Shown here: positions 1,859 through 32,975 of the stretch, one piece after another | How positions within the stretch are numbered: position 1 is the stretch's first letter | How the letters are laid out: every line of letters starts with the position of its first letter | Assembly: GCA_016208545.1 (NCBI GenBank) | Contig: JACQXU010000028.1 | Coordinates: 1 to 33,374 of the forward strand | Source of the DNA: Candidatus Uhrbacteria bacterium | GTDB lineage: Bacteria > Patescibacteriota > Patescibacteriia > UBA9934 > GWF2-40-263 | Reading direction: 5' to 3' | DNA length: 33,374 nt | Notes under the pieces: model-generated | Databases searched by the model: none | Seen by the model: the letters and a program-made list of their open reading frames with translations, nothing else | Told to the model about the DNA's origin: nothing | Made by a program: the position numbers and the translations under genes

Positions 1859-1908
1859 AAGGGGAATGAAATAGTTTCTGAAACCGTATGCTTACAAGGA
1901 GTCAGAGC

Positions 1909-2655: not shown

Positions 2656-2686
<31 letters not shown>

Positions 2687-5168: not shown

Positions 5169-6062
5169 ACATCTGTGTCCCGTCTGATGGCAACATCAGA
5201 CAAAGTACATGGCTAATAACGGTGAAACCCTATTTGTTCCACGATGGAGATCGTGGCACGAGGTGTAAATAGATAGGGCAATACCGTGGGAAGTCGGGGG
5301 AAGGTAACATGCATTATTATGAAGTTATCTTCAATACAAAAAGAAATCATCTATGGTACGGTTTTGGGTGATGCGTTTTTGCAAAAAACAGGAACGCAGA
5401 ATGCTCGGCTCAGGCTTGAGCATTCAGAGAAACAAGAGGCCTACATGTCTTGGAAGTATCAACAGTTAGAAAATCTCTTCGCCAACAAACCAACCAAAAT
5501 GAAACGAACGCATCCAATCACAAGAAGAACATACGGATATGTTCGTCTACAAAGTCATTCATCACCTTGGTTTGGGAAGTTACGGGAACAGTTTTATCTG
5601 AATGAAAAAAAAATCATTCCGAAAAATTTCGACCGTTTTCTCAAAACAAGCCGCACACTTGCTGTGTGGTACATGGATGATGGTCATTATTATCAACGAG
5701 ATAAATCTGCGCATATTTATATGCAGAAACTTTCTGAAGAAGAAATCTTCAGACTCATTCAGACATTTGAGAAACAATTTTCGATTCGACCGAAGATTTA
5801 TTGTCGGCCAGATCGAAAGGCTTGTAAGTTGACGTTCAATGGACAAGATCTCAAACAGTTTGTCAGATTAATTCGACCGTATATAATTCCTTCAATGGAA
5901 TATAAACTCCCCCTTGACCCCGTAACGACTGAGAGCGAGAATCATTCAGTTTTTTGAGCTCAAGACTCAGCATTAAGCTGGGTAATATGCCGTGCCCCCG
6001 CCATTGGCGGGGTGAAGATATAGTCTACGCGAATGGTAACATTCGAATACGTTAAATACGTG
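5169..6062 (+). mobile_element. group I intron at the omega site (after U2449 equivalent) with a LAGLIDADG gene
   Basis: The exon reads CTCTGGGGAT | AACAGGCTAGTC. The T before the splice site and the terminal G are both present. GAAGATATAGTCTACGC lies near the 3' end. The 5' region GGCTAATAACGGTGAAACCCT...AGGGCAATACCGTGGGAAG is shared with intron 4. Confidence 0.85.
5319..5957 (+). CDS. double-motif LAGLIDADG homing endonuclease (I-SceI-like family)
   Basis: The motifs are IIYGTVLGDAFL and LAVWYMDDGHY, with C-terminal LIRPYIIPSMEYKLP. It is a paralog of the 4278 ORF. ATG 5319 is preferred over the upstream GTG 5286. Confidence 0.85.
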   Translation: MKLSSIQKEIIYGTVLGDAFLQKTGTQNARLRLEHSEKQEAYMSWKYQQLENLFANKPTKMKRTHPITRRTYGYVRLQSHSSPWFGKLREQFYLNEKKIIPKNFDRFLKTSRTLAVWYMDDGHYYQRDKSAHIYMQKLSEEEIFRLIQTFEKQFSIRPKIYCRPDRKACKLTFNGQDLKQFVRLIRPYIIPSMEYKLPLDPVTTESENHSVF

Positions 6063-6106
6063 AACAGGCTAGTCTCCCCCAAGCGTCCACAGCGACGGGG
6101 AGGTTC

Positions 6107-6137
<31 letters not shown>

Positions 6138-6173
6138 AGCTGTAGAAGGTTCCAAGGGTTTGGCTGTTCGCCA

Positions 6174-6209
<36 letters not shown>

Positions 6210-6966
6210 AAAATCATTGCGACCTCTCGCTGTAAAGCGAGAGAAAAATTTGGCTATATCGGTGAAACCCTCCTTAGCAAGACCGAACGCTAAGAGGGCA
6301 ATACCGAGGGAAGATTTGTGGTAAAATTGGAGTGGTATGCTCCAAGAATTTGAAAAAGCTTATATCGCCGGTTTCCTAGACGGCGATGGATGTATAATGT
6401 TTCAACTTGTCAAACGTAAAGACTACGTTTACGGTTTTCAAATTCGCGCAAGCATCGTCTTTTTTCAAAAGACGATCCATCGCGATCATTTGGAATGGAT
6501 AAAGGATAAGTTGAAATACGGATACGTTCGAGATAGAAATGACGGAATGTCAGAATATACGATTGTCGGGATAAACGAAGTGCGTGAGACTCTCAATCAA
6601 ATAGGTCCCTTTCTTAGATTGAAACAGTCGCACGTAAAGCTTGCATTCAAAATTTTTGAAACCATACCAAAGCGATTTGCTCCTTACACCATTTGGGTTG
6701 TAAGTGAGTTAGTCGATCAATTCTCACAGCTGAATTATTCCAAGAAGCGTACTAACACAACAGATACGCTTCTTGATTACTTTGCCGAATTGATGGATCA
6801 ATCACAAATCCCCGTAACGACTGATTCCAAGTACCGAGAGGGAACGGATGAGATAGCGAGAAAATTATGAAGATGGAATGCTATCACACGCCAACTCCTA
6901 TTCAAGAAGGAGAATTGAATAGGAAGAAGATATAGTCTATGCCATTAGAAATAATGGAATATCATG
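6210..6966 (+). mobile_element. group I intron in the GAACGTCGT|GAGACAG segment (E. coli about 2593-2596) with a LAGLIDADG gene
   Basis: The exon GAACGTCGT | GAGACAGTTCGGTC is contiguous after removal. The T before the splice site and the terminal G are both present. GAAGAAGATATAGTCTATGCC lies near the 3' end. Confidence 0.85.
6337..6870 (+). CDS. single-motif LAGLIDADG homing endonuclease (I-CreI-like, homodimer type)
   Basis: It has YIAGFLDGDGCI, GYVRDR and GPFLRLKQ, as in I-CreI (LAGFVDGDGSI, GYVRDR, QPFLKLKQ). It is 177 aa long. Confidence 0.85.
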   Translation: MLQEFEKAYIAGFLDGDGCIMFQLVKRKDYVYGFQIRASIVFFQKTIHRDHLEWIKDKLKYGYVRDRNDGMSEYTIVGINEVRETLNQIGPFLRLKQSHVKLAFKIFETIPKRFAPYTIWVVSELVDQFSQLNYSKKRTNTTDTLLDYFAELMDQSQIPVTTDSKYREGTDEIARKL

Positions 6967-7017
6967 GAGACAGTTCGGTCTCCTATCTGCCATGGGCAAC
7001 GAAGATTGAAGGAATCC

Positions 7018-7059
<42 letters not shown>

Positions 7060-7465
7060 ACCAGTTGTTCTGCCAAGAGCATTGCTGGGTAGCTACGTTC
7101 GGTGCGGATAAACGCTGAAAGCATCTAAGCGTGAAGTCGCTCCTAAGATTAGTCTTCATTAAGACCCCTTCGAGACTAGAAGGTTGATAGGCCATACGTG
7201 AAAGCGCTGTAAAGCGTTGAGCGGAGTGGTACTAATAGGTCAAGCTCTGCAACCATTTAAGGATTTGAAAAAATTTTGGCGATCTGTTGGCTTAGATCTG
7301 CGCCCACTTTCTCAACGACCGTTTTAGGTCGTCTCGGTCGTGTGCTCGACCTTAACCAACATCTCATCCAAAATTTATTGCAAATCCACTTGACGTGTTT
7401 CGCGTCGAGTGGCTCATCGGTTTTCTTTACATAATATCTTAAATAGAACTCTCTCAAAGAGTTCT

Positions 7466-9160: not shown

Positions 9161-9342
9161 TATAGACCTCACACTATGAAACAGGACTCGATAAATAGCC
9201 AAAATTGTGCAGAACTTGTTTTTCACATTGAAAAATCCTCACGGTATCTACGGATACCGCTGTGGTTTTTCAATGCTCCAAAACTGCGTCCTGCGCAATT
9301 TTGTCTTATTTCTAAGTTTTGTTTCATAGTGTGAGGTCTATA
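9161..9342. repeat. 182-bp imperfect palindrome (MITE-like) flanked by GGTAT direct repeats
   Basis: TATAGACCTCACACTATGAAACA (9161-9183) is the exact reverse complement of TGTTTCATAGTGTGAGGTCTATA (9320-9342). The arms stay similar up to the centre CGGTATC-TACG-GATACCG. GGTAT occurs at 9156-9160 and at 9343-9347. Confidence 0.8.
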
Positions 9343-9400
9343 GGTATACTCGCTTTTGTTCTTTCGCATATACTTACTACAAACTACCAACTACCAATTT

Positions 9401-10858: not shown

Positions 10859-11080
10859 AAATGTGTTCACCTCCTTTGCGGAGTTTAAACGTCGGTTGTA
10901 AAAAATTCCTCCAGACGTTTTATTTAAATTATGAATTACGTGCTCGATCGAGCACTGCAAAAATGTATTGCAGTCTTTTGTCGTCTTGCATGGCGCGATG
11001 CTTGAACGATGTATTTATTATAACAGAAAGAGTTTGTACCGAGTAGTAAATTAAGAAAATTATTTTTTTGTTATTAGATA

Positions 11081-11117
11081 CTTCATAACTCAAAGACTTC
11101 ATGACTCAATGACTTTT
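11081..11117. repeat. 8-nt-period array (GTCATTGA family) immediately after a stop codon
   Basis: The minus-strand reading is GTCATTGA GTCATGAA GTCTTTGA GTTATGAA. ACT recurs every 8 nt at 11088, 11096, 11104 and 11112. Confidence 0.55.
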
Positions 11118-12678: not shown

Positions 12679-12890
12679 GGGCCAGTAGCTCAGTTGGTAG
12701 CCCCGCACTACAACAATGAAATAGTACGGCTGGTGGCGGGCCTGTAGCTCAGTTGGCTAGAGCGTCTGCTTTGCAAGCAGAAGGTCAAGGGTTCGAGCCC
12801 CTTCAGGTCCACCATAATCCGTTCTTCTCATTGTTGTAGTGCGGGGTTGCAAGCAGGGGGTCTGGGGTTCGAATCCCCACTTGTCCACCA
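12679..12890 (+). pseudogene. tRNA-Ala-like gene split by a 146-nt insert and lacking about 10 nt (D-stem 3' strand plus anticodon-stem 5' strand)
   Basis: The 5' piece GGGCCAGTAGCTCAGTTGGTAG (12679-12700) and the 3' piece TTGCAAGCAGGGGGTCTGGGGTTCGAATCCCCACTTGTCCACCA (12847-12890) align with tRNA-Ala positions 1-22 and 33-76. This includes G3:U70, the UGC anticodon, the T arm and CCA. No equivalent of AGCGCCTGCT is present. Confidence 0.5.
12738..12814 (+). tRNA. tRNA-Ala(UGC): tRNA-Ala (anticodon UGC), CCA encoded
   Basis: The cloverleaf is: acceptor GGGCCTG/CAGGTCC with G3:U70; D arm GCTC-AGTTGGCTA-GAGC; anticodon arm TCTGC-TTTGCAA-GCAGA; T arm AAGGG-TTCGAGC-CCCTT; then ACCA. Confidence 0.9.
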
Positions 12891-12892
12891 TC

Positions 12893-16457: not shown

Positions 16458-19073
16458 TTATAACCCAGATATACCTCGAATAACAAAAGGCAAGATTCCA
16501 CCGTGGCGGAAATATTCGCATTCAACAACAGAGTCAAGTCGGCAAAGAACTTCGAATGTTTTGTTAGAACCGTCTGAATTCAAGGCTGTAACTGTGATTT
16601 TTTGTCCAGGTTTCAGATCATTATCAATTGGAATTGTAAATTTTCCACGACCCGTCAGGCCGATTATTTTTCTGTTTTGTCCTTCCAAAAATTGCAAAGG
16701 CAAAATTCCCATACCAATCAAATTACTTCTGTGAATCCGCTCGACACTTTCAAATAAAACTGCGCGCACGCCAAGTAGCGCTGGGCCTTTTGCCGCCCAA
16801 TCGCGAGACGAACCCATGCCATAATCTTTTCCAGCAATTACAACAAGTGGCGTTTTTTCTTTTTTGTATCGTTCTGCCGCTTCGAAAACTGAAGTCAGTT
16901 CATCTGTTGGAATGTGAATTGTAACACCTCCTTCAGTTCCTGGCGCAAGTTCATTTTTGAGTCTGACGTTTGCAAACGTTCCACGCATCATCACCTCATG
17001 ATTTCCTCTTCGTGCTCCGTAAGAGTTGAAATCTTTTGGTTCAATTCCGTTTTCTCGCAAATAATCCGCTGTCGGGCCAGTTCGTGCGATGTTTCCGGCC
17101 GGCGAAATATGATCAGTAGTCACAGAATCTCCAAGAACAAGAAGCGCTCTGGCTTCGTAAATCGGTTTGATTGCGTCAGGTTTTTTTGTGAGTCCAGCAA
17201 AAAATGTTGGCAAACGAATGTACGTTGATTTTTCATTCCATTTGTAAAGATTATCATTTGGCACAGACAGCGATTTCCACTGATCGCTTCCGACAGTCAC
17301 ATTTTGATATTGTGTTTTGAACAGTTCTGGTTTTAGCACGTTGTGAACGATAGATTGAATTTCTTGATTTGACGGCCAGATGTTTCGAAGAAAAATTGGA
17401 AGACCGTCAGGGTCGTGTCCAATAGGCTCATTTTCAAAATCAATATCAACTCGGCCTGCAAGAGCAAACGCAACAACAAGCGGAGGTGAAGCAAGGAAAT
17501 TTGCGCGTGTGATTGAATGAATCCGTCCTTCAAAATTTCTGTTCCCAGACAAAACAGAAGCAGTGACAAGTTTATTTTCTTCAACTATTTTTGTGAGTGA
17601 ATCATCGATAGGTCCGCTGTTGCCGATACATGTTGTGCATCCAAATCCAACAATATGAAATCCCAAAGTTTCCAAACTTTTAATAAGTCCAGAAGATTCA
17701 AGATATGCTTTTACAACTTGCGATCCAGGAGCGAGCGATGTTTTGACGTGCGACGGAGTGCGCAAACCGTTTTTGACTGCATTGCGCGCGAGAAGTCCTG
17801 CCGCGAGCATCACACTTGGGTTTGATGTGTTTGTGCAAGAAGTTATCGCGGCAATTAAGACAGAACCGTCGTGAATATTTCCATTGTCTTTGGAAGAGTT
17901 TGCTTCGTCTCCAAGAAATTTTTGAAATGTATTTTTTATATCTTTCAGTGCGACTCGATCTTGAGGACGAGTTGGACCAGCAACCGAGGTTTCTATTTCT
18001 GACAAATCAATTTCGATCGTTTCGGAATATTTAATATCATTTTGCGGCAACCCACCTTGTTCCACCCTTGGGAAAGGGGGAAAAACAAACAATCCTTGCG
18101 CGCGCAAATATCTCTCGGCTAAGTGCACTTGCTCGATGTCTCGTCCGGTGTTAATGAGATAGCGAATCGTTTCTGCGTCTGGCGGGAAAAATCCGATCGT
18201 TGCTCCGTACTCTGGAGCCATGTTCGAAATCGTTGCACGATCTGGAAGGGACAAAGTTGCAACAGCGGATCCAAAAAATTCGACAAATTTTTCAACAACT
18301 CCGTGCGAGCGCAAACGCTGTGTAATCGTCAAAACCAAATCTGTTGCAGTGACGCCATTTTTTAGCTCGCCAACAAGTCGCACACCAACAACTCGCGGAA
18401 TCAAAATGGAAATCGGCTGTCCTAGCATCGCGGCTTCGGCTTCAATTCCACCAACTCCCCATCCGAGCACACCAAGTCCATTTATCATTGTTGTATGTGA
18501 ATCCGTTCCAACGAGCGTGTCTGGAAAAATTTGTCCATCTTTTGTCGTAACAGTCGTTGCAAGATATTCCAAATTTACTTGATGTACAATTCCTGTTGCT
18601 GGTGGAATTACACGGAAGTTTTTGAAAACGTTTTGTCCCCATCGCAAAAATTCATAACGTTCACTATTGCGTTCAAATTCGCGCTCTGTATTTTGTGCGA
18701 GCGCTTCCGGCGATCCATAAGAATCAACCTGAACAGAATGATCAATTACTAAATCAACAGGCACTTTAGGATTGATTGCGGATGGGTCTATTCCAAAAGA
18801 TTTAACTGTTTCGCGCAACGCGGCCAAATCTACTACAGCCGGAACGCCGGTAAAATCTTGCATAAGAACGCGAGATGGATAAAACGGAATTTCTTGGTTA
18901 TGAAGTTCGTTGTCTCCCCATTTTAATTTTATTCGCTCTGCCATTTCTTCGTGCCCGTTTCGTAAAAGATTTTCAACCAAAATTCGAATAGAAAAAGGCA
19001 AATGTGAAACATCCACAAGCGCTGGGTATCGGAATTTTTCAGAGTCAGTTATTATTTCTAAGTTCTGTTTCAT
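16458..19073 (-). CDS. acnA: aconitate hydratase A
   Basis: It is full length, with LPFSIRILVENLLRN, MQDFTGVPAVVDLA, DHSVQVD, GTDSHTTMINGLG, CTNTSNP, GCTTCIGNSGP, NRNFEGR and SSRDWAAKG. Start MKQNLEII (ATG 19073) is preferred over the ORF-track start at 19175, which would translate the intergenic repeat. Confidence 0.95.
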   Translation of the reverse strand: MKQNLEIITDSEKFRYPALVDVSHLPFSIRILVENLLRNGHEEMAERIKLKWGDNELHNQEIPFYPSRVLMQDFTGVPAVVDLAALRETVKSFGIDPSAINPKVPVDLVIDHSVQVDSYGSPEALAQNTEREFERNSERYEFLRWGQNVFKNFRVIPPATGIVHQVNLEYLATTVTTKDGQIFPDTLVGTDSHTTMINGLGVLGWGVGGIEAEAAMLGQPISILIPRVVGVRLVGELKNGVTATDLVLTITQRLRSHGVVEKFVEFFGSAVATLSLPDRATISNMAPEYGATIGFFPPDAETIRYLINTGRDIEQVHLAERYLRAQGLFVFPPFPRVEQGGLPQNDIKYSETIEIDLSEIETSVAGPTRPQDRVALKDIKNTFQKFLGDEANSSKDNGNIHDGSVLIAAITSCTNTSNPSVMLAAGLLARNAVKNGLRTPSHVKTSLAPGSQVVKAYLESSGLIKSLETLGFHIVGFGCTTCIGNSGPIDDSLTKIVEENKLVTASVLSGNRNFEGRIHSITRANFLASPPLVVAFALAGRVDIDFENEPIGHDPDGLPIFLRNIWPSNQEIQSIVHNVLKPELFKTQYQNVTVGSDQWKSLSVPNDNLYKWNEKSTYIRLPTFFAGLTKKPDAIKPIYEARALLVLGDSVTTDHISPAGNIARTGPTADYLRENGIEPKDFNSYGARRGNHEVMMRGTFANVRLKNELAPGTEGGVTIHIPTDELTSVFEAAERYKKEKTPLVVIAGKDYGMGSSRDWAAKGPALLGVRAVLFESVERIHRSNLIGMGILPLQFLEGQNRKIIGLTGRGKFTIPIDNDLKPGQKITVTALNSDGSNKTFEVLCRLDSVVECEYFRHGGILPFVIRGISGL

Positions 19074-19083
19074 AGTATTATGT

Positions 19084-19260
19084 GACCTCTGCAAAACTGG
19101 TGCATTTTCGTCGAACAGGCTGTCGAGCCCGCGAAAACGGCAACAAAATTCTTGGGTAATTAATTTGTTAACCATTCAAAATTTAAACGAAGATTTAAGC
19201 ATGGAGAGCTGGCTCGACTGGTCGCCTGTAAGATGAAAATGCACCAGTTTTGCAGAGATC
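19084..19260. promoter_or_regulatory. 26-nt inverted repeat placed directly upstream of both divergent start codons (acnA, icd)
   Basis: GACCTCTGCAAAACTGGTGCATTTTC (19084-19109) matches the reverse complement of GAAAATGCACCAGTTTTGCAGAGATC (19235-19260) at 25 of 26 positions. The arms lie 10 nt from the acnA ATG and 4 nt from the icd ATG. Confidence 0.55.
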
Positions 19261-19264
19261 ACTT

Positions 19265-20446
19265 ATGTCTATTTTTGTAAAAAGCCCAATTGTCGAACTA
19301 GATGGAGACGAAATGACTCGTGTTATTTGGGCTCTCATTAAAGACCAGTTGATCTTGCCATATCTTGAGGTTGATCTCAAATATTTTGATTTGGGGATAA
19401 AAAACCGCGACTCAACAGACGACAGAGTTACGATTGAAGCCGCTGACGCGATCGCAAAATACAAAGTCGGAGTGAAATGCGCCACAATCACACCAAATGT
19501 CGAGCGTGTGAAAGAATATCAGCTCAAAAAAGAATGGCCGTCGCCAAATGGAACGATTCGTGCGAGGCTTGATGGAACGGTTTTTAGAAAACCAATAGTT
19601 GTTTCAAACGTTTTGCCTCAAATGCGTTCATGGAAAAAACCGATTGTGATCGGCCGCCACGCTTACGGAGATATTTATAAAAATGTCGAATTTTCAGTTG
19701 CGTCAGGACAGACAGCCGAGCTGGTTGTTGGGGAAAATAAAAAAATAATTTATGTGTTTGATGGACCCGGAATTGTTCAAGCTGTTCATAACACAGAAGA
19801 TTCGATTCGATCATTTGCAAAAGCTTGCATTGCATTCGCGCTTTTTGAAAAAATAGATCTTTGGTTTGCGACAAAAGATACAATTTCGAAAATTTATCAC
19901 GCGCGGTTTCGGGATATTTTTCAAGAAGAAATTGATTTGCGAAAATCTGATTTAGAAGCGGCAGGCATAAAGTATTTTTACATGTTAATTGATGACGCTG
20001 TCGCTCGCGTGATGCGAAGTGAAGGCGGTTTTTTGTGGGCATGCATGAATTACGACGGAGACGTAATGAGTGACATGCTCGCTTCTGGTTTTGGAAGTTT
20101 GGGGCTGATGACGTCGGTTCTTGTGAGTCCGTCAGGTGTTTTCGAATTTGAAGCCGCGCATGGAACAGTTCAGCGTCATTATTACAAACATTTGAAAGGC
20201 GAGACGACCTCCACGAATTCAACTGCGAGCATTTTTGCGTGGACTGGAGCCATCAAAAAACGCGGCGAGCTGGATATGACTCCAGAAGTCGTCGCGTTTG
20301 GAAATCGTCTTGAGAAAGCCGTTGTTGAAACTATCGAGTCAGGTATTGTGACAGGCGATTTAGCATCGATTATTTCAACTCAAAATGTTGTGCCGGTAAC
20401 TACGCAAGAGTTTATTCACGAGGTGAAGAAGCGTATTGAAAAATAA
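19265..20446 (+). CDS. icd: NADP-dependent isocitrate dehydrogenase (eukaryotic-like homodimeric type)
   Basis: It has [35 protein letters not shown] and NYDGDVMSD. It is about 394 aa from ATG 19265. Confidence 0.95.
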
Positions 20447-20551
20447 ATTATAAGAATAGATTGAATGAATAGAGTGGATGCGTAAACTGTTGACATTTTT
20501 TCACAGGGGTGAAAAGACGTCAACAAACTTTGCTACATAAATTTTTTTCTT

Positions 20552-21477: not shown

Positions 21478-22464
21478 TTAAATAATTTTTGGTTTGAATG
21501 ACGGATGCTTTTTTAGGCGCGAAGCAATTTGTCTATCAGATAAAAGGCCATCTTGAGGACCGACTTGTCCAATTACTGAAGCAGAATTTACAGATCCCCA
21601 TTTAAGAGCGTCTTTTGCTGTTTTTCCGTGCATGAGTGCTCCGATAAAACCAGTTGCAAAAGCATCGCCAGCGCCGGTAGCTTCAACCAGTTTTCCTGGA
21701 AAAATGTCAATTGAAAGCAAAGTTTTTCCATCAAAGCACGCCGCTCCATTTTTTCCATCTGTAACAACAACGACTTTAGCGCCTAAGCTATAAAGTTCTG
21801 TTGCAAGACGAGTTATTTCGTCTATCGTTTTTGAAATTAAGTATTGTGCTTCGCTTCGATTTACAAACAGCACTTCAGCTTTCTGAATCAATTCAAAAAG
21901 CACAGGTTTTCGTTCCGAAATTTGAACTGTTCCAGGATTTATGCCAAGTCGGATTTTTTTCTTTTGAACGTAGCGTGCGAGGTTTGAAAAAAAAGGTTCG
22001 TATCCATTTCCCATTTCACCAACGTAGAGCCATTTTGTTTCCGGCAATGGTTTTGGAAGGCGATATGCGTTTTGGTTGTGCGCGGTCAGCAATGTTTTTT
22101 CACCTTTGAAATTAAGAACTACCGAGTACGCGCTTTTTGCGCCTTTGATCGAACGAACGAAGCGTGTTGAAACTTTTTCTTTTTCAAGTTTTTCAAGTGA
22201 AAGTTTTCGAGTTCCATCCTGTCCCATATTTGAAATGACCGCAGTTTTTTGTCCCATTCGCGAAAGACCGACAGCGACGTTTGGAGCGGTTCCTGCGATT
22301 TGCGAATCCACCATTTCAACAACGATTTTTCCGCCGTAATCCAAACACAATTGGCATTCAGGCATTTTGAGTTGACATTGAAGGCTCGCGTCGTTTAAGA
22401 CGACGAATGTGTCGAGTTTGATGTCGCCGATTGTGATGAGATCGAGCATAATGGAAATAGTCAT
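21478..22464 (-). CDS. PfkB-family carbohydrate kinase
   Basis: It has LITIGD, GTAPNVAVGLSRMG and GAGDAFATGFIGAL. It lies between tktC and fba, and the substrate is not assignable. Confidence 0.85.
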   Translation of the reverse strand: MTISIMLDLITIGDIKLDTFVVLNDASLQCQLKMPECQLCLDYGGKIVVEMVDSQIAGTAPNVAVGLSRMGQKTAVISNMGQDGTRKLSLEKLEKEKVSTRFVRSIKGAKSAYSVVLNFKGEKTLLTAHNQNAYRLPKPLPETKWLYVGEMGNGYEPFFSNLARYVQKKKIRLGINPGTVQISERKPVLFELIQKAEVLFVNRSEAQYLISKTIDEITRLATELYSLGAKVVVVTDGKNGAACFDGKTLLSIDIFPGKLVEATGAGDAFATGFIGALMHGKTAKDALKWGSVNSASVIGQVGPQDGLLSDRQIASRLKKHPSFKPKII

Positions 22465-22505
22465 TGAGTCATTGAGTCATTGAGTCGTGGAGTCGTGAAG
22501 TGTGA
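22461..22505. repeat. 8-nt-period array that forms the whole tktC-pfkB spacer and contains the pfkB start codon
   Basis: The plus-strand reading is TCATTGAG x3, then TCGTGGAG TCGTGAAG. GAGTC recurs at 22466, 22474, 22482 and 22490. Confidence 0.75.
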
Positions 22506-23521: not shown

Positions 23522-23850
23522 AAATTATCTGTCATTGCGAGGGAGTCTTCAGACGACCGAAGCAATCTCCTCGTATAAGTCGTTCCATTTTGGAATAGTC
23601 GAGTTGATAAGTTCAACTTTTTTTTTCTTGAACCAGCTTTGAGTTGTTTTTCTCTTGAGATTGCATTGTAAGCTTCTTCGCACATTTCGTAATAAACAAG
23701 TTTGTTCAGATTATATTTTTTTGTAAATCCATCTATTAATTTTTCTCTATGTTCCCAGATTCTGCGAACGATGTTGTTGGTAACTCCAATATATAAAACT
23801 CGATTGTTGGTATTTGTAAGGATATAGACAAAATAAAGTTTATCTTCCAT
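23518..23850 (-). CDS. GIY-YIG nuclease family protein (YhbQ / COG2827-like)
   Basis: It has FYFVYILTNTNNRVLYIGVTNNIVRRIWEH, GFTKKYNLNKLVYYE and AISREKQLK. ATG 23850 is preferred, because the ORF-track N-terminal extension is a translated repeat arm. The C-terminus is out of register with the family after an A9 tract (see findings). Confidence 0.8.
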   Translation of the reverse strand: MEDKLYFVYILTNTNNRVLYIGVTNNIVRRIWEHREKLIDGFTKKYNLNKLVYYEMCEEAYNAISREKQLKAGSRKKKLNLSTRLFQNGTTYTRRLLRSSEDSLAMTDNL

Positions 23851-23948
23851 AAAATATGCATAGATTGCTTCGCGGAGTTTACCCTGAGCGAAGTCCCGCT
23901 TCCAGACGGGACCCCGCCAGAGGCGGTGGTCGAAGGGCTCGCAATTAC
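23531..23948. mobile_element. palindromic element with a GIY-YIG gene in its loop (putative autonomous copy of the GTCATTGCGAGG repeat family)
   Basis: The first arm is GTCATTGCGAGGGAGTCTTCAGACGACCGAAGCAATCTC (23531-23568). The second arm is AGATTGCTTCGCGG...GGGCTCGCAATTAC (23862-23948), in inverse orientation, degenerate and expanded. Only the GIY-YIG ORF lies between them. Confidence 0.55.
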
Positions 23949-24914: not shown

Positions 24915-25730
24915 TTATTGAACCGTGATCGTGCCTGTCATGTTGCTGTGATACGCACAATGAAATGAATACGTTCCAGCCGTTTTAAAGTATTTTATGA
25001 AACTTCCGCCTGCTGTCATTGTTCCTGTTCCCCATACTCCGTCGTCCCCGCTTGCTGAATGTTTTGTAGATCCGTTGTTTACAAACTTCACAGCTCGGCC
25101 AGCGCTCACAGTCACGTTGCTTGGTGTGTACATGTTATCTGTGATTGTAACTACGATCGCTGATTGAAGATTTTTGTCTGTATTTATGTCTGTTGCTTCA
25201 GCTTTTTCTGCGTTAACGCTGAAACTTGTCGAAATTTCAATAGCAGTGCTGATTTTGTAATTTGGGAAAAATCCATCCGGAACATCATCAATCATTTTAT
25301 TCCAGTTGCTTCCGTACAAAGTAATCGCGATTGCTTCTGTTGAAACATGACGCAGAGATCCTCCGCTTCCAACAGCGTACACTTTTGGATCACTATTGAT
25401 TTTAATCATTTTAACACCCGGCTTGTACGTTACATTTCCTCCGATTTGAATTGTTGCCAAGTCTTTATCAGTCAACCAAAGAACACTGTCAAAATTGCTA
25501 AACCATGTGAAATACGTTTTGTCGTTTGGGAAAACGTAACGCATTCCATCAGCTCCGTAATAATAAACTGCCGAATACGACTGACCGCGAATTAGGCTTC
25601 CTGATTGCAAATTTGCCGGAGTCGTGTAAGTTTGCGCGCTTGCTGTTGAGGTCCAAGTAGCAAACGACATTAAAACTGTCGCAAAAATCGTAAGAGTTGA
25701 AACGAAAATGAGAGAAAAACGTTTGGACAT
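24915..25730 (-). CDS. secreted protein with C-terminal type-1-copper (cupredoxin) domain
   Basis: The signal-like N-terminus is MSKRFSLIFVSTLTIFATVLM. The C-terminal roughly 90 aa carry ...VKFVNNGSTKHSA...YSFHCAYHSNMTGTITV. This is the His...Cys-x2-His-x3-Met arrangement of blue-copper ligands. Confidence 0.7.
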   Translation of the reverse strand: MSKRFSLIFVSTLTIFATVLMSFATWTSTASAQTYTTPANLQSGSLIRGQSYSAVYYYGADGMRYVFPNDKTYFTWFSNFDSVLWLTDKDLATIQIGGNVTYKPGVKMIKINSDPKVYAVGSGGSLRHVSTEAIAITLYGSNWNKMIDDVPDGFFPNYKISTAIEISTSFSVNAEKAEATDINTDKNLQSAIVVTITDNMYTPSNVTVSAGRAVKFVNNGSTKHSASGDDGVWGTGTMTAGGSFIKYFKTAGTYSFHCAYHSNMTGTITVQ

Positions 25731-25755: not shown

Positions 25756-26559
25756 TTATTTTACAATTATTGCGCCGCTCATCACAGATTTACTTGCGTA
25801 TTTTGAATAGTAATTCCATGTTCCTTTTTCAACAAAGTATCGCGTGAAATGCTGTCCTGGTTTAAGTGTTCCTGATCCCCAAACACTATCCCATTCTGTG
25901 GCTGAATGATTTGTTGTTGAGTTGTTGACCCATCGAACTGCTCGTCCGCTTTCGATCGTTGCTGTCGGGGGTTCGTAACTTGTATTGTTTATTGAAATAA
26001 TCGTCGCGGATTTGAGATTCTTGTCTGTATTGATATCGCTTGCATCAGCTTTTTCTGCGGTAATGCTGTATTGTGATGCAAATTCAATTTTACTTCCAAT
26101 TTCATAGTTTGAAAAAAATCCATCAGGAACATCATCAATTTGTTTATTCCAATTTGCTCCATAAAGTTCTTTCGCGATTTGTTCTGAAACAATCGCGCGA
26201 AGAGTTCCGTCGCTTCCAACCGCGTAAACTTTTGGATCGCTATTGATTTTTACCATTTTTACACCAGGTTTGTACGTTACATTTCCTCCAATTTGAATTG
26301 TTGCCAAATCTTTGTCAGTCACCCATTTTACAGAACTGAAATTGTTATACCATGTGAAATACGTTTTGTCGTTTGGGAAAACGTAACGCATTCCGTCAGC
26401 ACCGTAATAATAAACTGAAGAATAAGTTTGACCTCGGAAAAGATCGCCTGACTGGATTGAAGAGATTGGAATAATTGTTGCGGCGTTTGCAGGAAGGACA
26501 AAAAGTGCCGAGAGAACCCAGAAGGCCGAGATGGTCGAGAAGAAAAACGTTTTTTTCAT
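25756..26559 (-). CDS. paralog of the preceding gene with a degenerate copper site
   Basis: It has the same roughly 170-aa N-terminal domain (YYYGADGMRYVFPNDKTYFTW, IQIGGNVTYKPGVKM, DDVPDGFF). The C-terminal beta-domain reads YYSKYASKSVMSGAIIV, with no Cys and no second His. Confidence 0.6.
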   Translation of the reverse strand: MKKTFFFSTISAFWVLSALFVLPANAATIIPISSIQSGDLFRGQTYSSVYYYGADGMRYVFPNDKTYFTWYNNFSSVKWVTDKDLATIQIGGNVTYKPGVKMVKINSDPKVYAVGSDGTLRAIVSEQIAKELYGANWNKQIDDVPDGFFSNYEIGSKIEFASQYSITAEKADASDINTDKNLKSATIISINNTSYEPPTATIESGRAVRWVNNSTTNHSATEWDSVWGSGTLKPGQHFTRYFVEKGTWNYYSKYASKSVMSGAIIVK

Positions 26560-27951: not shown

Positions 27952-30900
27952 ATGAATTTTTCACAACGTGAGCAAGAAATCCTAAAACAATGGGACGATC
28001 GAAAAATTTTCAAAAAAACATTGGAGAAAGACGCGCCTAAGGGCTCGTTTGTGTTTTTTGAAGGTCCGCCAACAGCAAATGGACGGCCTGGCATTCATCA
28101 TGCCGAATCCCGTGCGTTTAAGGATAGCATTCCGCGTTTTCGCACAATGCAAGGGTATCGAGTTGTGAGAAAAGGCGGTTGGGACACACATGGTTTACCT
28201 GTTGAAATTGAAGTTGAAAAGCAACTTGGGTTCACTGGCAAAGCCCAGATTGAAGAATTTGGGATCGCGAAATTTAATGAGCTTTGCAAACAAAACGTTT
28301 GGAAATATAAAAAGGAGTGGGAAGAATTTACAAAGCGACTCGGTTTTTGGGTTGATCTTGAAAATGCGTATGTTACTTACGCGCCAGAATACATTGAATC
28401 TTTGTGGTGGGTGATCAAACAAGTATGGAATAAAGGACTTTTATACAAAGATTACCGTGTGACACCTCATTGCCCGCGTTGCGGAACGTCATTATCAAGC
28501 CACGAACTCGCGCAAGGATATAAAGATGTGAAGGATTTGAGTGTGACGGCGAAGTTTAGAATTGAAAGTCATGGAGTCACAGAGTCATGGAGTAATGGAA
28601 CTTCGGAATACATTTTGGCGTGGACAACAACGCCGTGGACATTGCCTGGGAATGTCGCGCTTGCTGTTGGAAAAGATATTGATTATGTGAAAGTGAAACA
28701 AGGTGATGAATTTTTGTGGTTAGCAAAAGACCGTCTTCAAATTTTAACAGGCGAATATGAAATCATCGAAGAAGTAAAAGGCGAAAAACTGGTTGGAAAA
28801 AAGTACGAACCGCTTTATCCGTATCTTAGAGATGTCATTGCGAGGAGCGAAGCGACGAAGCAATCTAGCGAAGAGATTGTTTCTATGGGTCAAGGTCTCC
28901 CTCGCAATGACAGAGATTCTGCTTTCACTATCGTTCCCGCCGATTTCGTCACAACACAAGATGGAACCGGAGTTGTTCACACAGCTGTAATGTACGGAGT
29001 TGATGATTTTGAATTGGGAAATAAAATTGGTCTTCCAAAACATCATGTTGTGAAACTTGACGGGACGTTTATTGAAGGAATGGATTTTCTTTCCGGTCGT
29101 TTTGTGGCTGACGAAGCTGTTGCTGTTGATATTATAAAAGATTTAGCGCATCGCGGACTTTTGTTCTCAAAAGAAAAGTTTGAACACTCATATCCGCACT
29201 GTTGGCGATGCAAAACAAAACTCATCTATTACGCAAAAGATTCTTGGTATATCGCAATGACTAAACTACGCGATGAACTTTTGAAACAAAATGACAATAT
29301 CCACTGGGAGCCGGAGCATATTAAGAATGGGCGATTTGGTGAATGGTTGCGCGAGGTGAAAGACTGGGCGTTTTCGAGAGAGCGTTATTGGGGAACACCG
29401 CTTCCGATTTGGGAATGTGAAAGTTGCAAACATCAAATGTGTGTTGGGAGTTTTGAAGAGTTGCAGTCATTGCGAGCGACCAACGGAAGCGAAGCTATCT
29501 CTGCGACTGAAGAGATTGCTTCGGTCGGCAAGAGCATCCCTCGCAATGACGAGGCAAATTTCGATCCTCATCGTCCTTATATTGATGAGATTAAAATCGT
29601 ATGTGAAAAATGTTCAGGTTCTGCAAAGCGTGTTCCGGATGTGTGTGATGTTTGGTTTGATTCAGGCGCAATGCCGTTTGCGCAGTGGCATTATCCATTT
29701 GAAAATAAAGAGATTGTTGATTCAGGTGAAGAATATCCGGCAGATTATATTTCAGAAGCCATTGATCAAACTCGTGGATGGTTTTATACACTTCTCGCTG
29801 TTGCGACTTTGCTTGGGAAAGAACGGCCGTTTAAAAATGTGATTTGTTTAGGACACGTTTTAGACGCTGAAGGAAAAAAGATGAGCAAGTCTCTCGGAAA
29901 TATAGTTTTACCGATGGAAGCAATGGAAAAGTTCGGCGCTGATGCAATTCGTTGGTACATGTACACAATCAATCAGCCAGGTGAGTCAAAACGGTTTGAT
30001 GAAAAAGCGCTTTCAGAAATGGTGAAAAAGAATTTTGGAATTTTGTCGAACGTTGTTTCTTTCTATAAAATGTTTTCTACTCCACGACTCCACGACTCCA
30101 CGACTCTACGACTCCACATTCTCGATCGTTGGATTCTCGCGCGACTTCACAAACTCACAAAAGAAACAACTTCAAGACTCGAAAATTATATTATCACTGA
30201 AACCGTTCGAGAGCTCGGAGATTTTATTGATGATCTCTCAACTTGGTATGTTCGTCGTTCGCGCGATAGGTTTAAGGGCACAAACGAAAAAGATAAGCAG
30301 TCTGCGATCGCGACTTTGCATGAATGTCTTTTGACTTTTTCAAAACTTATCGCGCCGTTTGCGCCGTTTTTAGCTGAAACTGTTTATCAAGACATTGGAG
30401 GAGAAAAAGAATCTGTTCATTTGGAAGATTGGCCGGCGTTTGATGATTCTATGATTGATGAAAATCTGCTTTTGGATATGAAAACCGTTCGCGGAATTGT
30501 TTCTCGTGTTCTTGAACGTCGTTCAGAAGCTCAAATTCCAGTGCGACAAGCGCTTGGTTCAATGAAAGTAATTCTTCCAACAGGAGAACTGTCTCAAGAA
30601 TATCAAGATTTGATTTTGGATGAAGTGAATGTCAAAAAGATTGAAGTTCAAAAAGGCGATTTGTCAGTTGAACTTGATTTAACTCTTACACCAGAACTTT
30701 TGCGTGATGGAATTGCACGCGAAATTATTCGTCGTGTGAATACGCTTCGAAAAGAGAAGGGCTTGACGATCAATAATCGAATTGAATTGTTTGTTTCGGG
30801 TTCAGACGAAGTTTTTCGAGTTGTCGAAGAACATCGTGCTGAACTTTTGCACGGAACACTTTCAGATTTGATTCGCACAAAAGGCAGTTCGCCAGAAACA

Positions 30901-30957
30901 AGCGAATCGTTTCTAGTAAACGATCAGAAAGTTGTTGTTGGGTTTGATGTAAAGTGA
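27952..30957 (+). CDS. ileS: isoleucine--tRNA ligase
   Basis: It has PPTANGRPGIHH (HIGH), WTTTPWTLPGN, DGTGVVHTA, CWRCKTKL, SRERYWGTPLP, DVWFDSG, SEAIDQTRGWFY and KKMSKSLGN (KMSKS). It is 1001 aa. Confidence 0.95.
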   Translation: MNFSQREQEILKQWDDRKIFKKTLEKDAPKGSFVFFEGPPTANGRPGIHHAESRAFKDSIPRFRTMQGYRVVRKGGWDTHGLPVEIEVEKQLGFTGKAQIEEFGIAKFNELCKQNVWKYKKEWEEFTKRLGFWVDLENAYVTYAPEYIESLWWVIKQVWNKGLLYKDYRVTPHCPRCGTSLSSHELAQGYKDVKDLSVTAKFRIESHGVTESWSNGTSEYILAWTTTPWTLPGNVALAVGKDIDYVKVKQGDEFLWLAKDRLQILTGEYEIIEEVKGEKLVGKKYEPLYPYLRDVIARSEATKQSSEEIVSMGQGLPRNDRDSAFTIVPADFVTTQDGTGVVHTAVMYGVDDFELGNKIGLPKHHVVKLDGTFIEGMDFLSGRFVADEAVAVDIIKDLAHRGLLFSKEKFEHSYPHCWRCKTKLIYYAKDSWYIAMTKLRDELLKQNDNIHWEPEHIKNGRFGEWLREVKDWAFSRERYWGTPLPIWECESCKHQMCVGSFEELQSLRATNGSEAISATEEIASVGKSIPRNDEANFDPHRPYIDEIKIVCEKCSGSAKRVPDVCDVWFDSGAMPFAQWHYPFENKEIVDSGEEYPADYISEAIDQTRGWFYTLLAVATLLGKERPFKNVICLGHVLDAEGKKMSKSLGNIVLPMEAMEKFGADAIRWYMYTINQPGESKRFDEKALSEMVKKNFGILSNVVSFYKMFSTPRLHDSTTLRLHILDRWILARLHKLTKETTSRLENYIITETVRELGDFIDDLSTWYVRRSRDRFKGTNEKDKQSAIATLHECLLTFSKLIAPFAPFLAETVYQDIGGEKESVHLEDWPAFDDSMIDENLLLDMKTVRGIVSRVLERRSEAQIPVRQALGSMKVILPTGELSQEYQDLILDEVNVKKIEVQKGDLSVELDLTLTPELLRDGIAREIIRRVNTLRKEKGLTINNRIELFVSGSDEVFRVVEEHRAELLHGTLSDLIRTKGSSPETSESFLVNDQKVVVGFDVK
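28567..28598. repeat. 8-nt-period array in frame in ileS
   Basis: AGTCATGG AGTCACAG AGTCATGG AGTAATGG encodes ESHGVTESWSNG in a naturally variable segment before WTTTPWT. Confidence 0.6.
28834..28911. repeat. 78-nt GTCATTGCGAGG...CCTCGCAATGAC palindromic element translated in frame in ileS
   Basis: The sequence is GTCATTGCGAGGAGCGAAGCGACGAAGCAATCT-AGCGA-AGAGATTGTTTCTATGGGTCAAGGTCTCCCTCGCAATGAC. This is 26 codons, VIARSEATKQSSEEIVSMGQGLPRND. Confidence 0.75.
29466..29550. repeat. 85-nt copy of the same palindromic element translated in ileS
   Basis: The sequence is GTCATTGCGAGCGACCAACGGAAGCGAAGCTATCTC...AGAGATTGCTTCGGTCGGCAAGAGCATCCCTCGCAATGAC. It encodes SLRATNGSEAISATEEIASVGKSIPRND. The left arm is read in a different frame from the first copy; the right arm is read in the same frame. 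Confidence 0.75.
30078..30118. repeat. 8-nt-period array in frame in ileS, reverse complement of the 28567 array family
   Basis: CGACTCCA x3 and CGACTCTA begin at 30085, 30093, 30101 and 30109. The array encodes STPRLHDSTTLRLH. Confidence 0.6.
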
Positions 30958-31096
30958 TGGCATCTCGTCACTTAGTGACGTGGAATGTTTACAACTTTTC
31001 ACAGGGGTGAACTTTTGTCAGCAAAATTTTTGTTATAACTTTTGTCAGCAGTTCAACCAGTTCAACTGGTTCACTTGATTCATCTTGATCGTATTT

Positions 31097-31966
31097 ATGA
31101 ATTTATTAGTTTCATCTTTATTGCATTCTTCAGTTCTAATAGTTCCGCTCAATGATGCGGAATCTATTTTGATCAGCCAGATCGCGCAAAAGATCGGCTT
31201 GCAAACAATTCTTTCAAAACAAACTCACGGCGCGTCGCTTGATAAAGGCCGCGATTATTTTCCAATCATCAAAAAAGGCAAATTCAAAAAAGTGATCGCT
31301 GTTGAAATGCCGGGGCCTAAAACGGAAACTAAGTTGAAAAAACTCGGAATCTATTTTGTTATTATTGATCATCATCATTACACAGGTTTGGATCGCGCGC
31401 ACGACGCATCTCAAAAGATGTTGCCTTCGTCACTCGAGCAATTTCTCAAACTTTTCAAACTTACAGACACAAAATTAAAAACATTAGGTTTTGATCCGAG
31501 ATTAGTTCGCGGGATAGGAATTTATGATCGCGGTTTCATTTGGGCGCTTCAAGAAGAAGGTTATGGCAAATCAGAGATAAAAAGCGTTCTCGCTTTTCAC
31601 GATGCGCTTATTTCACAAATCCACAATCCAAAAACCGAAGCGCGAAAACAATCAATCGCAAAACGCGCATGGCAAAGTCGAAAAAAATGGCGAGAATTTT
31701 TTATTGTTGAAACAAAAGCGGACATTCAACTTCGTCCGCGTTTGTCGCGAATTGTAGCAGAAGAATTTGAAAAACCAACTCCGCTTATTGTCATTGAACA
31801 CAAACGCGGTTTGATTTATATTCAAGAGTCTGACAAAGCGATAGATCTTTTTCAAAAGTTCGGCGGATTCACATTTGGCCAAGATCGTAATTGGGGGTAT
31901 CGTAATGAAAAAAGGAAAAGGCGTGTTACAGTCCGTGATGTAAAAAAAGTTTTATTGAACCAATAA
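31097..31966 (+). CDS. hypothetical protein
   Basis: This is a 289-aa ORF from ATG 31097. It contains VIIDHHHY, but I cannot place the other DHH-family motifs. No confident family assignment is possible. Confidence 0.55.
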   Translation: MNLLVSSLLHSSVLIVPLNDAESILISQIAQKIGLQTILSKQTHGASLDKGRDYFPIIKKGKFKKVIAVEMPGPKTETKLKKLGIYFVIIDHHHYTGLDRAHDASQKMLPSSLEQFLKLFKLTDTKLKTLGFDPRLVRGIGIYDRGFIWALQEEGYGKSEIKSVLAFHDALISQIHNPKTEARKQSIAKRAWQSRKKWREFFIVETKADIQLRPRLSRIVAEEFEKPTPLIVIEHKRGLIYIQESDKAIDLFQKFGGFTFGQDRNWGYRNEKRKRRVTVRDVKKVLLNQ

Positions 31967-32064
31967 GCCTGTTGCTAAATAATTTGTCAGAATAACAATA
32001 GTAGATTGCGGATAAGTAATTAAGCTAAATTAAGCCAAAAAGTATAGAAAGTGCCACTGAACCC

Positions 32065-32093
32065 TTGACAGTATTTTGGTTTCGTGGTATACT
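32065..32093 (+). promoter_or_regulatory. near-consensus sigma70 promoter TTGACA-17nt-TATACT
   Basis: TTGACA is at 32065-32070 and TATACT at 32088-32093, with exactly 17 nt between them. It is preceded by the same ACCC as the promoter at 647. Confidence 0.6.
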
Positions 32094-32099
32094 GCTGTT

Positions 32100-32351
32100 G
32101 TAAGGATGAGAACAGAAAGAAAGGGAAACGAGAACATTCAAACAATTTAATGTGTCGCCTAGGAAACGACACTTCGCTATAAAGAGCGAGAGAGCCCGAC
32201 TCTGGGGTTACAAGAGAAACCAGCTAAATCAGCTGTCATTGCGAGGAAGTCTAGCCTTAAGGCAAGACGACGAAGCAATCTCAGTGTTTAGCTTGTGAAG
32301 CAGGTTTTGGAATTCTCTCTAACAAAGGATTCTAAAACCTGCTTTTTCTTT
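32100..32351 (+). ncRNA. candidate roughly 250-nt small RNA (consensus promoter to intrinsic terminator)
   Basis: There is no ORF over 14 codons. The unit ends in a 14-bp hairpin, GCAGGTTTTGGAAT (32300-32313) with ATTCTAAAACCTGC (32329-32342), followed by TTTTTCTTT. It contains one arm of the GTCATTGCGAGG repeat. Confidence 0.4.
32235..32282 (+). repeat. single arm of the GTCATTGCGAGG repeat family
   Basis: GTCATTGCGAGGAAGTCTAGCCTTAAGGCAAGACGACGAAGCAATCTC has the same module order as 23531-23568, with a longer internal hairpin. Confidence 0.6.
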
Positions 32352-32975
32352 ATGAAAAAGCAACTCGTAGTGCTCGGATAGATAGGAGTGGGGGCCGCAA
32401 GGTCACCAAAAGCGAGAGAGCTTAATCCTATTTACCAGAGTCTACACTCTGACAATCTCCGGCCTTTTGGCTGGATCTTCCGGGGACGACAACCGGAAAC
32501 GTCGAGGTCGCTGGAATACGTCCGTTCGCCTGATGGTTATCAGGCGAACAGGCACAAGGCGATCTCCCCAATGTGAGTCAGATCACATTGTGGTAATGAG
32601 TGCGCAAGAGTGGAAATTAAACTTCCATTCCTTGCACTCCTTATCACTAAAACATGTGGTAGACGCAGGCTTCAGCCTGCGTGACTTCGCGAGAGAGGAG
32701 TGTTCGTTACAACTAAATAATCTTCGATCGTTTTTTCTGAACTCAACCGTTTTTGAACTATCCGTCCGTGCACGACACTTTGTGCCGAATGCGCGAACAA
32801 CGGACTCAAAGAGCAGGTGACTTTGGATAACGATCTTCCTTAGCTCGTAATCTCTATATTTATGAGTTTTGGAAGCGCCACCTCATGTGAGGCGACGCGA
32901 CTGATTTTGGGCACCCATGCCCTCCGCTTGATGCGGAAAAAATGGGGAGAAATAAAATGTGCCAGATGAATTGTA

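Follow-up and report, generated by a model that had tools for sequence, protein, structure and literature searches.

In-frame palindromic segments in the isoleucyl-tRNA synthetase of an Uhrbacteria-like bacterium and their kinship with a nested GIY-YIG gene

Two palindromic segments in ileS and the loops they occupy

The window analysed in this study is a stretch of 33,374 nucleotides assigned to Candidatus Uhrbacteria (contig JACQXU010000028.1). Its gene ileS (27952–30957, plus strand) encodes a type-2 isoleucyl-tRNA synthetase (IleRS) of 1001 amino acids and harbors two short palindromic segments that are the subject of this work. The assignment is based on TIGR00392, with a score of 897 bits for a cut-off of 621, and on the Pfam domains tRNA-synt_1 and Anticodon_1. 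The best solved relative is IleRS2 of Priestia megaterium (8c8w, E 1e-266), and the closest IleRS proteins are annotated as Candidatus Uhrbacteria or Patescibacteria; the window originates from a candidate phyla radiation (CPR), Uhrbacteria-like bacterium.

A preliminary description, made from the DNA alone, had drawn attention to both segments, and its coordinates and translations are exact. Copy A (28834–28911, plus strand) comprises 78 nt, i.e., exactly 26 codons, and is read as V295–D320 (VIARSEATKQSSEEIVSMGQGLPRND). Copy B (29466–29550, plus strand) comprises 85 nt, starts with the third base of codon Q505 and is read as S506–D533 (SLRATNGSEAISATEEIASVGKSIPRND). Reading of the codons confirms that the left arms use different frames (GTC ATT GCG in copy A, G TCA TTG CGA in copy B), that the right arms share one frame (GAA GAG ATT ... 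CCT CGC AAT GAC) and that both copies are free of stops in the ileS frame. Copy A has the termini GTCATTGCGAGG and CCTCGCAATGAC and the inner stem CGAAGCAATCT / AGATTGTTTCT. Common to both copies are an outer stem, GTCATTGCGAG(G/C) paired with (C)CTCGCAATGAC, and an inner stem, CGAAGCAATCT paired with AGATTGCTTCG, while the stretches between the stems vary. The strong hairpins anticipated in the mRNA are indeed predicted, with -33.8 kcal/mol for copy A (z -5.1 versus shuffles) and -36.5 kcal/mol for copy B (z -4.0). Five exact matches to the 12-mer GTCATTGCGAGG or its complement are present in the 33 kb, next to one copy with one mismatch, for a chance expectation that we estimate ourselves at about 0.004; when up to two mismatches are allowed, there are nine matches versus 2.4 expected, a number reached in none of 100 shuffles. 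Rfam has no match to the element, neither in the whole window at gathering thresholds nor at E ≤ 1 in 28700–29700 or 31950–32900.

The copy A loop (site 1) is part of the CP1 editing domain and the copy B loop (site 2) is part of the zinc-knuckle insertion of the catalytic domain. Site 1 falls inside a stretch that can be aligned with isolated CP1 editing-domain constructs of T. thermophilus (e.g., 1wk8, which spans query residues 189–416), and the matching loop of IleRS2 has about five residues (8c8w 291–297). Site 2 is located between two CxxC motifs, CESC (C489/C492) and CEKC (after residue 550), where 8c8w has about 13 residues. An AlphaFold model built with 105 orthologues (mean pLDDT 87.6, pTM 0.81) superposes on IleRS2 structures with TM 0.80–0.83 (0.83 to 8c8u). 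Its residues with pLDDT below 50 are confined to 209–214, 306–315 and 511–533, all of them repeat-derived pieces; 306–315 belongs to copy A and 511–533 to copy B. Since low confidence is limited to the repeat pieces and the model superposes on IleRS2, the view of both inserts as surface loops, predicted to be largely disordered, is supported at the level of prediction.

The earlier expectation that short loops normally join the ileS flanks is borne out by alignments with orthologues and with IleRS2 of P. megaterium. Among 120 aligned full-length IleRS orthologues (57–88% identity), the majority, including orthologues at 60–82% identity, lack both segments and carry short loops, typically of 20 residues at site 1 (e.g., FMGSLVTGENKEKLESTAYR) and of 16 residues at site 2 (ELRELAKDKSLVGENF). 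P0004 (82% identity), encoded at the syntenic locus L001, is empty at both sites and so is P0030; element arms are absent from all 14.8 kb of L001. P0002 (88% amino acid identity), encoded at locus L002 of an independent groundwater assembly from another project, has both copies at identical codons. The copies are therefore not assembly artefacts, and both have been kept through about 16% nucleotide divergence between the window and L002. The notion that nothing was inserted, the segments being ancestral IleRS sequence or products of misassembly, can draw on nothing but the prior that metagenome assemblies may misjoin at repeats; it is practically untenable in the face of the short loops of most orthologues, the derived position of filled alleles in the tree described below and the second assembly. 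These were the two conditions that the preliminary description had named as refuting it; both came out negative, and its interpretation is supported. The loop location had been recognized correctly in the preliminary description, whereas the size of the insertions, given there as about 26–30 residues, was too large. Comparing the DNA of the empty allele L123 with that of its filled sisters L124 and L125 shows that about 12 ancestral codons have been replaced at site 1 and about 10 at site 2. Because the element thus takes the place of about 10–12 loop residues, the net gain is +16 amino acids at site 1 and +19 at site 2. The loops of P0004 are shorter than the ancestral ones, which could reflect an imprecise loss of the element. 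A resemblance of the ancestral loops (GTCACAGACGAG...CTCGAGTCGAC in L123) to decayed mini-elements or microhomology targets was left as an idea, as it concerns one sequence and was noticed post hoc.

In a neighbor-joining (NJ) tree of 891 core columns of IleRS, computed without support values, the ancestral loops have 20 and 16 residues and element-bearing alleles appear in at least five clades, interspersed with empty sisters. The same two loops of other Uhrbacteria IleRS harbor this element or palindromes of related subfamilies, with peptides such as VILSEAKD...PQDD, SSRA...LGMT and PPSKGG-type repeats; judged from these sequences, the two loops are insertion hot spots. Smaller variable loops are situated at residues ~205–215, ~711–721 and ~774–779. 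The scattered distribution could stem from one ancient entry per loop with partial loop deletion, after which filled alleles spread among Uhrbacteria in a homing-like manner, through homologous recombination or short-tract gene conversion, a process that nuclease cuts in empty alleles may have stimulated. Such a history would differ from the explanation that we prefer, i.e., arrival of a mobile palindromic element (see below), only in its route, as it needs no repeated de novo transposition. The site-1 alleles of at least four separate clades agree in their boundaries (..N/D before VIA...PRND and K/R/T-D after it) and in the 12 ancestral residues that they lack, filled alleles share the left flank (Y/F)(L/I)(Q/R/K)(N/D/G) versus FM(G/S)(S/E) in empty alleles, and an idiosyncratic side hairpin of the right arm (GGTCGGCCAAGGCC) is common to all Uhrbacteria copies. 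However, the right flanks stay typical of the lineage (TAYRVHPASFVTT in P0009 as well as in its empty sister P0030), the tree behind such a spread has no support values, and the distinct palindrome subfamilies in the same loops of other lineages (VILSE..., ...LGMT, PPSKGG) require several independent arrivals. A single entry per loop is conceivable but rather unlikely.

The comparison of the window with L002 reveals how the 54 codons of copies A and B evolve. Their pS is 0.24 versus 0.49 in the rest of ileS (permutation over window pairs p 0.0016; Fisher's test 0.005), their pN is 0.061 versus 0.072, and their dN/dS is 0.22. Third positions account for 10 of the 17 differences (binomial p 0.027). 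Differences affect 9 of 120 paired columns versus 8 of 43 unpaired ones, and the outer stem is unchanged. The segments thus evolve like coding sequence, which argues for translation, while the halved pS and the conservation of the stems argue for constraint on, or homogenization of, the palindrome in an element family that is active or has recently been so. The data fit a translated sequence that may also be constrained as DNA or RNA, and both copies are most likely translated within IleRS. Predicted tryptic peptides spanning the junctions lie across D294–V295, correspond to QSSEEIVSMGQGLPR, or lie across E534–A535 after ...IPRND. The same values could be read as exaptation, in which the inserts have gained a function in IleRS, such as a regulatory effect on editing or contacts with tRNA or a partner, so that selection on the protein maintains them: both remain intact across the ~16% divergence, with a low dN/dS and a pN not above that elsewhere in the gene. 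Yet, the low pN is confounded by the nucleotide-level constraint on the palindrome, close relatives such as P0004 function without the inserts, unrelated repeat peptides occupy the same loops in other lineages and the segments are predicted to be disordered. We regard exaptation as improbable.

The segments might be missing from the mature protein through intron-like removal, ribosomal bypass (known from T4 gene 60 and from byp elements of mitochondria) or protein splicing. The strong mRNA hairpins, the three group I or LAGLIDADG insertions in the 23S rRNA gene of the same window and the position of the nuclease gene of a related copy (see below) in an apical loop, like homing-endonuclease genes in intron loops, would suit such a scenario. 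Nevertheless, both copies are stop-free and the frame is kept only if they are retained; copy B, having 85 nt, is not a multiple of three and excision of the exact palindrome would shift the frame, which argues against removal at the RNA level. A group I or II intron or other self-splicing RNA was rejected, as no Rfam core is found at E ≤ 1 over 28700–29700 while the true group I introns of the window are detected, and 78–85 nt is far below the size of a ribozyme. An intein was rejected since the inserts of 26 and 28 amino acids are far too short compared to Hint blocks of at least ~130 amino acids and Pfam finds aminoacyl-tRNA synthetase domains only. Programmed translational bypass was rejected because both segments are in frame and stop-free and contain neither matching take-off and landing codons nor an in-frame stop as used in bypass. 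The excess of third-codon-position changes also speaks against a loss of the segments. Any form of removal is therefore very improbable.

A nested GIY-YIG gene and a widespread hairpin family

The preliminary description had also tied the ileS copies to a GIY-YIG-bearing copy 5 kb away, a link that proves to be real and general. This full-length composite copy (23531–23948, minus strand), recognized by Pfam and arm matches, is located between split transketolase genes and consists of a left arm (23852–23948; GTAATTGCGAGC...CGAAGCAATCT), a GIY-YIG open reading frame (ORF; 23549–23851) and a right arm (23531–23573; GAGGAGATTGCTTCG...CCTCGCAATGAC). Its inverted-repeat matches amount to 83% with copy B and 76% with copy A. 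The ORF matches PF01541 (7.8e-16) as a single minimal domain without accessory domain and weakly resembles the UPF0213 protein BH0048 (1zg2, E 0.0065); no NCBIfam model matched it. Its homologues have 95–96 amino acids, are 65–75% identical and, in the few cases with a named source, come from Thermodesulfobacteriota, Ignavibacteria, Bacteroidota, Deltaproteobacteria and Nostoc. As these homologues end with ...DLYEEI(ASVG), the last codons of the nuclease gene form the inner stem. In L002, the right arm of the nuclease gene differs from the ileS arms in 2 of 42 bases, and ileS reads EEIASVG in the frame of the nuclease C-terminus, the stop TAA being changed to CAA. The architecture with arms around the nuclease gene recurs in L002, L072 (Flavihumibacter), L126 (Thermodesulfobacteriota) and L127 (Bacteroidota); in L128 (Nostoc) only a right arm was found beside the GIY-YIG gene. 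The inner stem of L126 is altered on both sides in a compensatory manner (GCGGCAATCTCT / AGAGATTGCCGC), the sole independent compensatory change, because L126 was found via its protein whereas the P1 and P2 stems of the 73 copies discussed below are fixed by the search pattern. Since the arms and the EEIASVG frame are shared with the nuclease unit, the short elements are best seen as putative internal-deletion derivatives of that unit.

The unit and its surroundings vary. Four tandem 42-nt left arms (GTCATTGCGAGCGAAGCGAAGCAATCTCTGTAAAACATCACT) are present upstream of the GIY-YIG gene in L002 (668–835, minus strand), and the left arm of the window is single, longer and contains a nested GC-rich hairpin. 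At the position of the GIY-YIG unit in the window and L002, L001 (1–1181) has an RVT_1 reverse transcriptase gene and an Avd-like gene adjoining transketolase-N, a pair that resembles a diversity-generating retroelement. A repeat search further identified an intergenic solo arm (32235–32285, plus strand) that shows collinearity with the GIY-YIG copy's right arm when the latter is read on the plus strand (TAAATNANCTGTCATTGCGAGGRAGTCT...GAAGCAATCT). The surrounding segment (32100–32460), within an intergenic region of about 500 nt, is richer in G+C, forms several local hairpins and matches no Rfam family at E ≤ 0.1; this stretch could represent the remnant of a nuclease unit or else an RNA lacking annotation.

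The short hairpin was recovered by a pattern scan at no fewer than 120 loci of GTDB genomes (at least 120 matches), and by record title the matches listed belong to Patescibacteria, Bacteroidota, Chloroflexota, Omnitrophota, Planctomycetes, Proteobacteria and others. A scan of IMG/VR gave 14 loci only, so that phages are not an obvious reservoir, and blastn with the 85-nt copy gave no match in PLSDB plasmids. Among the matches listed, in-frame internal copies occur in a Parcubacteria leucyl-tRNA synthetase (LeuRS; L059), in DNA polymerase I PolA (L066) and in a membrane protein (L085), and many other copies form N- or C-terminal tails of ORFs. Long ORFs spanning copies in the GC-rich loci L022, L098, L104 and L111 have the biased composition of spurious ORFs and were not counted as in-frame. 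The LeuRS of Parcubacteria GW2011_GWB1_42_6 (L059, minus-strand ORF 4200–6978 of the reversed locus) contains, in frame, no fewer than three different peptides derived from palindromes (CHCEESEGRRSNP...ARDDG; VIASSERAKQS...PRNDD; SVIPAQAGIQ...LDPRFHGDD...LGMT), and multiple colonization of class I synthetases seems common in CPR bacteria. Comparison of 73 copies with shuffles shows that an open frame is lacking in 15% versus 35% and that two frames are open in 40% versus 16%. The left arm is open in three frames and the right arm in two, its third frame always being closed by the TGA within AATGAC. Roughly half of the copies adopt folds of two to four hairpins, in which side hairpins flank the inner stem in a cloverleaf or four-way-junction shape.

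In this study, we propose, with a probability of roughly 75%, that the ileS segments are translated in-frame miniature derivatives of a selfish palindromic element with a GIY-YIG full-length form. The latter would consist of a minimal Slx1/UPF0213-like GIY-YIG gene of about 95 amino acids in the apical loop of the same hairpin, and the segments in ileS would be ORF-less miniatures of this nuclease-bearing form. The GIY-YIG nuclease would mobilize the hairpins, plausibly by cutting the cruciform or four-way junction formed by their arms. Copies in an essential gene would persist only if the loop is permissive, a multiple of three bases is added and a stop-free frame is used. The two copies would thus have replaced short ancestral loops of ileS and be read as peptides of 26 and 28 residues that leave the enzyme fold unaffected, and a palindrome still conserved or homogenized as DNA or RNA would indicate that the family has recently been active. 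Both the selfishness of the element, or its neutrality for the host, and nuclease-driven hairpin mobility are what we infer.

Several points weigh against this proposal. To our knowledge, no GIY-YIG protein acts as a bacterial transposase. The GIY-YIG gene of the window is itself frameshifted relative to all homologues at an A9 homopolymer (23618–23626, minus strand), as established by homologue comparison: its canonical C-terminus, VELINSTIPKWNDLYEEIASVV followed by the stop, is found in another frame, while homologues such as P0122 read ...SRKKKVDLINSINPKWDDLYEEIASVG. The frame change may mean a pseudogene with a real defect, a homopolymer assembly error or slippage. A consistent target-site duplication is missing, none being present at copy B, the GIY-YIG copies or L126/L127. 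The hexamer AGAGAT on both sides of copy A (AAAAAT and AAAAGT flank its L002 counterpart) was dropped as a candidate since it did not generalize to other copies. The elements replace loop residues instead of being plainly inserted, and with the nearest empty allele only 82% identical the insertion boundaries are approximate. The ileS hairpins are stronger in L002 (-41.3 and -51.2 kcal/mol) than in the window, which suggests decay in the window lineage, where the copies may be decaying fossils. The in-frame, stop-free status is partly a matter of ascertainment, as full-length orthologues alone were inspected and out-of-frame insertions are missed. Lastly, translation of the segments is itself inferred.

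Other repeats and features of the window

A third repeat-derived loop of IleRS (residues 206–216) is encoded by an octamer tandem array, AGTCATGG x4.1, detected by Tandem Repeats Finder (TRF) at 28567–28599 (plus strand) and in frame in ileS. It contains the low-confidence residues 209–214 of the model and is absent or different in orthologues. TRF also detects the array ACTCCACG x4.9 (30079–30117, plus strand), which has the opposite orientation, is likewise in frame (residues 710–722, STPRLHDSTTLRLH), codes for a loop that is variable in orthologues and has inverted matches to the intergenic array at 22459–22494. The octamer family (AGTCATKG or its complement ACTCCACG) is also found in intergenic regions at 22459–22494 and 11080–11115. 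The intergenic unit AGTCATTG contains GTCATTG, the first seven bases of the palindrome terminus, which may be due to chance or to a relation with a target or cleavage site.

The 23S rRNA gene (1182–7243) comprises three Rfam LSU matches, two group I intron matches (3457–3673 and 4033–4267) and LAGLIDADG endonuclease ORFs at 4278–4991, 5286–5957 and 6337–6870, with heptamer tandem repeats at 1400–2260 within the first LSU match. Inverted pairs of 49–55 nt are formed by another repeat family, CAATTTTGTCTTATTTCTAAGT..CTGTTTCATAGTGT, at 1–56, 9161–9215, 9296–9351, 19042–19120 and 19224–19272, i.e., at the window start and immediately upstream of two ORFs that start at 9356 and 19250. It may be another transposable element of the miniature inverted-repeat type (MITE) or a shared regulatory palindrome. 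A direct repeat of 65 nt (71% identity; 20481–20545 and 30979–31043), which contains TTGACA...TTTTCACAGGGGTGAA... and is located in the spacers beside an aldolase gene and downstream of ileS, looks like a shared promoter or terminator module. Tandem paralogous cupredoxin-like genes (24915–25730 and 25756–26559, minus strand) between transketolase-N and ribulose-phosphate epimerase give rise to the direct repeats D1–D3 (70–88% identical, 847-nt spacing), and at this position L001 and L002 carry one cupredoxin gene and an unannotated gene of 263 amino acids. In the segment 12682–12890, ARAGORN and Rfam call tRNA-Ala only (12738–12814). A tRNA-like T-arm is repeated 76 nt downstream (12847–12891, 78%), and an acceptor/D-arm-like sequence (12682–12719) has an inverted match at 12828–12865; these extra pieces may represent a second tRNA that is disrupted or contains an intron.

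Comparison with known systems

Small mobile hairpins in protein-coding genes are known from organelles, namely the optional GC-rich palindromic clusters of yeast mitochondrial var1 and the byp elements of Magnusiomyces. Unlike the latter, which are skipped by the ribosome, the ileS copies are in frame and stop-free. The window nuclease is similar to stand-alone Slx1-like GIY-YIG proteins (UPF0213, PDB 1zg2) in consisting of a minimal PF01541 domain (PMC1564403). In a survey of 2006, such stand-alone proteins are regarded as repair proteins with vertical inheritance, and palindromes flanking them go unmentioned (PMC1564403). Similar to GIY-YIG homing-endonuclease genes, the ORF sits inside a structured, presumably selfish element, but it has no I-TevI-type DNA-binding domain and no intron or intein around it.

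The REP (repetitive extragenic palindromic) elements and REPINs, together with their REP-associated tyrosine transposase (RAYT), are comparable in that short palindromes are tied to a single dedicated, domesticated-looking enzyme gene which they flank (PMC3733652, PMC3184786). The elements described here, however, have termini starting with GTCATT instead of a GTAG/CGTC tetranucleotide, and their copies are tolerated in coding sequence whereas REPs are described as extragenic. None of the 24 window ORFs scanned matches Y1_Tnp/RAYT. Bacterial MITEs such as ERIC, the Coxiella QMITE and those of Anabaena (PMC10969869, PMC5896051, PMC3184786) are likewise small and enzyme-less, have terminal inverted repeats (here perfect ones of 11–12 bp), share their ends with a longer coding element and occur between as well as within genes. 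In line with this, GTCATTGCGAG(G) and (C)CTCGCAATGAC bound the non-coding elements of 78 and 85 nt. In contrast to MITEs, the longer partner encodes a GIY-YIG nuclease of 95 amino acids and not an insertion sequence with a DDE, tyrosine or serine transposase, target-site duplications are not consistent, and the element as a whole makes up a single long and often branched hairpin, in place of a pair of terminal inverted repeats around unrelated DNA.

Literature searches, also by terminal sequence, returned primer coincidences and general papers on MITEs, REPs and GIY-YIG proteins and no description of the element or its GIY-YIG link, an absence that is not proof of novelty. What differs from the known systems is the element family, its breadth across phyla, the nested GIY-YIG gene and the recurrent use of the same loops. 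A bolder view, which we put forward tentatively and hold to be possible rather than probable, is that the minimal GIY-YIG gene, together with the conserved and often cloverleaf-like palindrome around it, represents the autonomous form of a multi-phylum class of mobile elements that has so far gone undescribed. Members would move by means of a nuclease that recognizes structure and acts on the cruciform or four-way junction of the element itself, the ORF-less hairpins would be their miniatures and, together with related palindromes and octamer arrays, these miniatures would repeatedly remodel permissive loops of IleRS, LeuRS and PolA in CPR bacteria under nucleotide-level constraint. The family could also account for a very large group of spurious annotations as "hypothetical protein", built from peptides such as VIASEAKQS, RLLR and PRND; many GIY-YIG-adjacent ORFs in public databases presumably contain peptides of this type. 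The two IleRS loops and the loops of LeuRS and PolA are naturally tolerant to insertion, which is useful for enzyme engineering and for understanding protein length variation in CPR bacteria.

The closest parallel is offered by the Rickettsia palindromic elements (RPEs), to which the preliminary description had likened the ileS copies. RPEs are in-frame, fold-compatible selfish palindromes in housekeeping genes (Ogata et al., 2000, 2002; summarized in PMC10969869). The likeness holds as a functional analogy: in both cases palindromes in unrelated housekeeping genes of a reduced-genome bacterium are read through at sites that the fold can accommodate, here most likely yielding extra peptides. 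It does not extend to family membership. The host belongs to the Patescibacteria/Uhrbacteria and copies occur in many phyla, and at 78–90 nt the elements have about half the length of RPEs (~100–150 bp; ~150 bp in PMC10969869). In addition, the full-length form of this family codes for a protein, the GIY-YIG nuclease located between its arms, while no autonomous partner of RPEs is known. With such a visible coding partner, i.e., one nuclease of 95 amino acids and one hairpin of 80 nt, the mechanism of mobility becomes experimentally addressable, unlike that of RPEs. In-frame selfish palindromes, a Rickettsia curiosity for 25 years, would thus also be present in the candidate phyla radiation, within a multi-phylum family. 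As far as can be told, this family is different from the RPEs, from which it is set apart by description and host, yet it works like them.

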